DNA from: Escherichia coli | GTDB lineage: Bacteria; Pseudomonadota; Gammaproteobacteria; Enterobacterales; Enterobacteriaceae | Direction: 5' to 3' (one strand) | DNA: 660 bases | NCBI RefSeq assembly: GCF_003334355.1 | Contig: NZ_QOWP01000104.1 | Part shown: positions 567-660 of the stretch, in pieces | Position numbering within the stretch: the stretch's first letter is position 1 | Layout: each line of letters opens with the position of its first letter | The notes under the pieces: model-generated | What the model was told of the DNA's origin: nothing | Seen by the model: only the letters and a program-made list of their open reading frames with translations | Database searches by the model: none | Translations under genes and position numbers: made by a program

Positions 567-660
567 ATTATTCATTGCTTTATATGGGTAATGACTCCAA
601 CTTACTGATAGTGTTTTATGTTCAGATAATGCCCGATGACCTTGTCATGCAGCTCCACCG

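Follow-up and report, generated by a model that had tools for sequence, protein, structure and literature searches.

Features of the locus

The DNA analysed here, a stretch of 660 nucleotides from Escherichia coli (the window), matches over its full length a chromosomal locus in which the type VI secretion gene vgrG is followed by an IS1 element and then by cusS. The first 22 codons of vgrG (MSTGLRFTLEVDGLPPDAFAVV) occupy positions 1–67 on the minus strand, as seen from the translation of 2–67 and from the annotated start of the VgrG coding sequence in related loci, which lies at the locus position equal to window position 67. An AT-rich non-coding spacer at positions 68–586 separates the vgrG start from the end of IS1 and represents part of a vgrG-cusS spacer of about 736 bp. 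The remaining 74 bases at 587–660 are read here as the right end of IS1, cut by the window edge, with the transposase genes on the minus strand and reading towards vgrG. Within this part, the right terminal inverted repeat (IRR; GGTAATGACTCCAACTTACTGAT) was assigned to 587–609 by an exact repeat match, and the last 18 codons of insB together with the TAA stop codon, encoding the C-terminus of InsAB′ (...VELHDKVIGHYLNIKHYQ), were assigned to 602–660 on the minus strand by translation and homology. The nine bases next to the element at 578–586 (CTTTATATG) are the predicted target site, based on the 9-bp duplications found at related copies.

In its unoccupied form, the vgrG-cusS spacer has a GC content of 31%, and it was found with a coverage of at least 80% in about 2,371 genomes. 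No annotated features other than IS1 were present between vgrG and cusS in the related loci, and the positions of IS1 differed among them. Two stretches with only 15–20% GC were also noted within the spacer, at window positions 301–390 and 481–570.

Sequence properties of the right edge

The right edge had previously been described as unresolved coding potential beginning at position 584, and all the sequence features given in this original prediction were found as described. The GC content of 601–660 was 0.450, in agreement with the approximately 45% reported, while it was 0.18–0.30 in 481–630. Direct reading of the sequence confirmed a TAA at 554–556 and ATG triplets at 584, 629 and 647, and no stop codon interrupts the plus frame between 557 and the window end at 660 (translation MGNDSNLLIVFYVQIMPDDLVMQLH). 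Both minus-strand frames were also present, one ending at a TAA at 604–602 (translation VELHDKVIGHYLNIKHYQ) and the other at a TGA at 624–622 (translation RWSCMTRSSGII). These open stretches comprise 35, 19 and 13 codons and are individually not statistically remarkable; according to the sequence comparisons, it is homology and not the length of open stretches that raises the right edge above chance. The terminal repeat of IS1 and the junction at 586/587 had not been recognized at that time. With both taken into account, the feature starts at 587 and not at 584, the ATG at 584–586 being host DNA that abuts the end of the insertion sequence, and the rise in GC content is the step from the host spacer with 18–30% GC to IS1 DNA.

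Identification of the right end of an IS1 element

IS1 is among the best-characterised bacterial mobile elements and is very common in E. coli. Considering all the evidence, we assign a probability of about 97% to the reading that positions 587–660 are the right end of an IS1 copy located in the AT-rich spacer upstream of vgrG. The terminal repeat, the C-terminus of InsB and the multicopy distribution point to this identity in place of the coding potential of uncertain nature assumed before. A megablast search of 5,426 complete E. coli genomes with the 77 bases of 584–660 yielded 71,353 places, spread over 4,958 genomes with a median of 10 places per genome, and 12,990 of these places were on plasmids; among the matches listed, all were annotated as 'IS1 family transposase'. 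Such a sequence, present in many copies at varying positions and missing at the orthologous site of other strains, behaves as IS1 does.

Pairwise BLAST against four loci aligned 587–660 with the initial 74 bases of IS1 in the loci L001 (98.6%) and L002. There were no mismatches over the 74 bases in comparison with the 768-bp IS1 copy of locus L005, and one or two in comparison with six other 768-bp copies. The 23-base IS1 terminal repeat GGTAATGACTCCAACTTACTGAT occurred once in the window, at 587–609, with no mismatch, and it was not matched in any of 200 shuffled sequences. The window IRR is identical to the left repeat (IRL) of the L005 copy, which belongs to the same variant, at 19 of 23 positions, and a perfect inverted-repeat core of 13 bases (CCAACTTACTGAT) is present at both ends of the IS1 copy in L003. 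Thus, the element end carries a terminal repeat of the IS1 type (GGTRATG...CCAACTTAYTGAT). All seven related IS1 copies are exactly 768 bp long and have ends of the form ...GGCA(G/C)CAT(C/T)ACC, and five of these seven are flanked by 9-bp target duplications. Beyond the equivalent of base 660, the copies in L003 and L004 continue with ATTTTGAGAAC....

These properties agree with the published description of IS1 as an element of 768 bp with imperfect terminal repeats of about 30 bp, in which a −1 frameshift joins insA and insB so that the transposase InsAB′ is produced, and which generates target duplications of 8–9 bp (PMC12428005). The TAA of insAB′ is described as being followed by 15 bp of IRR (PMC12428005), to which positions 601–587 of the window correspond: here, too, the insB/InsAB′ frame ends inside the right repeat, and its TAA lies 15 bp from the element end.

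Comparison with known IS1 variants

The IS1 copy of L005, located beside tauA in E. coli M217 and annotated in RefSeq as 'IS1 family transposase', is identical to the window over the 74 bases comprising the terminal repeat and the InsB C-terminus. The visible part therefore shows no difference from IS1 of the L005 type, and only the insertion site is new. The same architecture and the same length of 768 bp are found in the IS1A/IS1E 'consensus' IS1 of E. coli K-12 ('IS1-like element IS1A family'), and within the IS1 family of Enterobacteriaceae the TAA is likewise located 15 bp from the element end and the elements are multicopy on chromosomes and plasmids. In contrast to the L005 copy, the copies labelled IS1A (L006 and L007) differ from the window at two of the 74 bases. 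Since L005, which matches exactly, differs from these IS1A-labelled copies at 27–28 of 768 positions, the window copy is probably a different IS1 isoform.

Regarding its biological content, the finding is already known biology, i.e. the end of a textbook mobile element, and it is ordinary because IS1 is so common in E. coli. Its practical value is that the right edge can be annotated correctly, as the end of an IS1 mobile element carrying the 3′ end of a transposase gene; annotation as a candidate gene of the type VI secretion neighbourhood, or of the ATG at 584 as a start codon, should be avoided.

Insertion junction and origin of the copy

Positions 1–586 of the window are 100% identical to the vgrG-cusS spacer of L001 and L002, and the IS1 alignment begins exactly at 587 (both by pairwise BLAST). 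After ...CTTTATATG, which ends at base 586, the unoccupied site continues with ATAGATGGCTTG... (ATAGATGGCTTGTTTATAACG), whereas the window continues with GGTAATGACTCCAACTTACTGAT; because of this change, 586/587 is the insertion junction, and its exact position is observed directly. An AT-rich intergenic region that simply continues beyond the window, which had been named as the outcome that would overturn coding potential, thus applies to the unoccupied site only. Searches for the exact junction TATATG/GGTAATGAC failed to locate it among the 5,426 complete E. coli genomes, where the best match in a single piece had 93.3% identity and a gap of 9 bp, and neither 100,044 species-representative genomes nor metagenome contigs yielded it. 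The insertion site is new, being absent from the 5,426 complete E. coli genomes, and since this junction is strain-specific it could serve as a strain marker.

The most plausible course of events would be an IS1 insertion in the AT-rich spacer, 519 bp upstream of the start codon of vgrG, with its transposase genes on the minus strand and thus in the same direction as vgrG. IS1 favours AT-rich targets. According to established IS1 biology, InsA and the frameshift fusion InsAB′ would bind both terminal repeats, and InsAB′ would catalyse transposition and leave a target duplication of 8–9 bp; binding of the repeats by both proteins and catalysis by InsAB′ are described in the literature, as is a transposase promoter considered to be extremely weak (PMC12428005). 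We infer a complete element of 768 bp that originated from a simple insertion and duplicated CTTTATATG (578–586). As only 74 of the 768 element bases are within the window, an intact simple insertion would predict 694 further IS1 bases starting with ATTTTGAGAAC and ending with ...AGTAAGTTGGCAGCATCACC, followed by CTTTATATG and then by ATAGATGGCTTGTTTATAACG up to cusS.

A less probable origin, although one deserving consideration, is a truncated or rearranged IS1 as the source of the 74 bases, either a remnant or a copy whose far flank was exchanged through IS1-mediated deletion or recombination among IS1 copies. Rearrangement of the far flank is conceivable at this locus because the IS1 copies of L002 and L007, located at spacer position 793 (L002 4794–5561; L007 3794–4561), have no duplication and carry foreign DNA on their far side, i.e. 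ybdF or a truncated cusC in place of cusS. Furthermore, the junction is unique among the genomes searched, so that there is no sister genome with an intact far side. Against such an origin stand the uniform length of exactly 768 bp of all seven copies and the clean 9-bp duplications of five of them, and also the visible 74 bases themselves, which are undamaged and identical to a full-length copy.

Altogether, the spacer contains at least six distinct IS1 junctions including that of the window, which means at least five other independent sites. From left to right, these are spacer position 451–459 with duplication of AACGTTGTT in L001 (IS1 at L001 4460–5227), position 586/587 in the window, position 586–594 with duplication of GATAGATGG in L004 (IS1 at L004 4595–5362), position 587–595 with duplication of ATAGATGGC in L003 and about 25 similar genomes (IS1 at L003 4596–5363), position 659–667 with duplication of TAACTAAGT in L006 (IS1 at L006 3668–4435), and position 793 in L002 and L007 as given above. 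The neighbouring insertions of L004, the L003 type, L006 and L001 are located in the same spacer and in the same orientation at distances of 8, 9, 81 and 127 bp from the window junction, respectively, and they and the window insertion are most probably independent events. Three of the junctions fall within 9 bp (586/587, 594/595 and 595/596). As a side observation, IS1 was present in the spacer of only about 1–2% of the spacer-carrying genomes.

The proximity of the L003 type raises the question of a common origin, in which this commoner insertion, located 9 bp further right, would have lost the 9-bp copy of ATAGATGGC beside the IS end and thereby given rise to the window junction. Indeed, the window and L003 differ at the junction by exactly this 9-bp stretch and by one base in the repeat. 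We nevertheless regard such a derivation as quite improbable. The insertion of L004, offset by only 1 bp and having its own 9-bp duplication, is another event, so that this spot has been hit repeatedly. In addition, the IS1 end in the window has an A at element position 5, where the copies of L001, L003 and L004 have a G; it matches the L005 variant, which differs from these three copies at 27–28 of 768 positions. Because the window end agrees with the L005 variant and deviates from L001, L003 and L004 at position 5, independent insertion is the simplest reading. The two origins predict different far sides: after an independent insertion the flank would begin with CTTTATATGATAGATGGC, and after derivation from the L003 type it would begin with ATAGATGGC and lack the CTTTATATG repeat.

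The same orientation of all IS1 insertions seen in the spacer was considered as a possible orientation bias and rejected as evidence, since the query contained the IS1 end in a single orientation and copies in the opposite orientation would therefore have remained unjoined or unranked. The vgrG-cusS spacer has repeatedly received IS1, and some copies appear to have since deleted the adjacent copper-sensing genes. In detail, the left IS1 junction is the same in L002 and L007 (spacer position 793) and lies about 11 bp from the stop codon of cusS, and the far flanks differ, with ybdF-ybdJ-ybdK in L002 and a 5′-truncated cusC in L007. This pattern suggests IS1-mediated deletions in which cusS and cusR, the copper sensor genes, were lost and L002 also lost the entire cus operon.

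Reading frames at the IS1-host junction

To follow the reading frames beyond the window, positions 1–586 were joined to the L005 copy of IS1 (768 bp), in which the 74 shared bases are free of mismatches; in total, five IS1 copies (L001–L004 and L005) were read past the equivalent of base 660. This corresponds to the rightward extension originally suggested as a check, here carried out with the IS1 copy of L005, and the three frames behaved very differently. The plus-strand ORF starting at ATG 584 reached a TGA two codons past the window and comprised 27 amino acids in total, the minus frame ending at 624 was open for 28 codons only, and the minus frame ending at 604 remained open for 174 codons, representing insB. 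This last frame can be read directly. The insB ORF of L003, with 167 amino acids, has the same terminal 18 residues as the window and matched the NCBIfam model NF033558 (IS1 family transposase) with 147.7 bits at a cut-off of 100. Upstream of it, the insA ORF of L003 matched NF033558 and also an IS1/IS1595 zinc-binding domain. insA and insB overlap in L003, and related IS1 copies are annotated with a 'programmed frameshift'.

A weak preference had already been given to the frame ending at 604–602, taken as the 3′ end of a gene running in the same direction as vgrG. This proposal holds as to strand, frame and stop codon, and the encoded peptide is the C-terminus of InsB/InsAB′; the assumption of a resident gene of the vgrG locus was not borne out, as the sequence belongs to a multicopy mobile element. 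An ordinary chromosomal gene of the vgrG/Rhs neighbourhood, co-transcribed towards vgrG, would also account for a true coding frame that has codons typical of E. coli and points in the same direction as vgrG. We consider it very improbable, because a resident gene of the vgrG-Rhs cluster should be conserved beside vgrG, and the spacer is normally empty: a spread sample contained 35 full-length rows with an identity of at least 99.5%, of which 34 run from vgrG to cusS as one uninterrupted piece of 743–744 bp, and no gene is listed between vgrG and cusS in these uninterrupted rows. A median of 10 copies per genome, with further copies on plasmids, and the presence of an IS1 terminal repeat likewise argue against a resident gene. 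A divergent plus-strand gene starting at ATG 584, 629 or 647 and running out of the window to the right has a negligible probability in spite of the plus frame being open at 557–660, and it was rejected because the frame stops two codons past the window in the IS1 copy identical over 74 bases; moreover, the ORF is antisense to insB, and no plus-strand ORF of at least 60 amino acids was found in the IS1 of L003. This ORF is an accident of the junction, since its ATG at 584 comes from host DNA and all that follows from IS1.

Promoters and RNA elements

A consensus-based scan for promoters and terminators yielded three promoter-like sites in comparison with 3.0 expected from shuffled sequences, and none was located at the IS1-host junction. 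A hybrid outward promoter at the junction was considered and is unsupported, the promoter-like counts being at the level of the shuffles, and for these two reasons we do not claim an effect on vgrG. IS1 and IS5 insertions upstream of bgl activate the bgl operon. By analogy, IS1 insertions in the spacer might alter expression of the vgrG-rhs operon, e.g. by disrupting a silencing nucleoprotein structure, and hence be selected and not neutral; we regard this as an improbable, speculative scenario. In a scan of the window against Rfam with E-values up to 1, no hit was obtained in 584–660. The only three hits, to RAGATH-6, rliB and snoU13 in 259–520, had E-values of 0.18–0.51 and scored far below their gathering scores, and they were judged to be chance matches.

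The vgrG-Rhs neighbourhood

A literature search on this vgrG/cusS/rhs island found no relevant report, and several features of the surrounding region were noted in the genomes compared. The vgrG-proximal part of the spacer, about 450 bp (bases 1–454 of a query starting at window position 67), has copies of about 80% identity elsewhere in many genomes, upstream of other vgrG/Rhs genes; in K-12 strains, bases 58–454 of the query match at 81% beside a gene for an RHS core protein. Because of these copies upstream of other vgrG/Rhs genes, the upstream region seems to travel with Rhs/vgrG modules.

In strain GZ2408P (L004 2037–4067), a truncated pseudogene of an AraC-family regulator is annotated with its start where vgrG would begin, which looks odd since the first 67 bases match vgrG. 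This pseudogene abuts an element of the IS3 family, with ompT and appY beyond it, and this strain seems to have lost or exchanged its vgrG-Rhs module. The downstream vgrG-Rhs module has also decayed in some other strains (L006 984–3067; L001 1–1657): F11 has a truncated vgrG and a frameshift in the PAAR/Rhs gene, and in strain 203740 the Rhs gene contains an internal stop codon.
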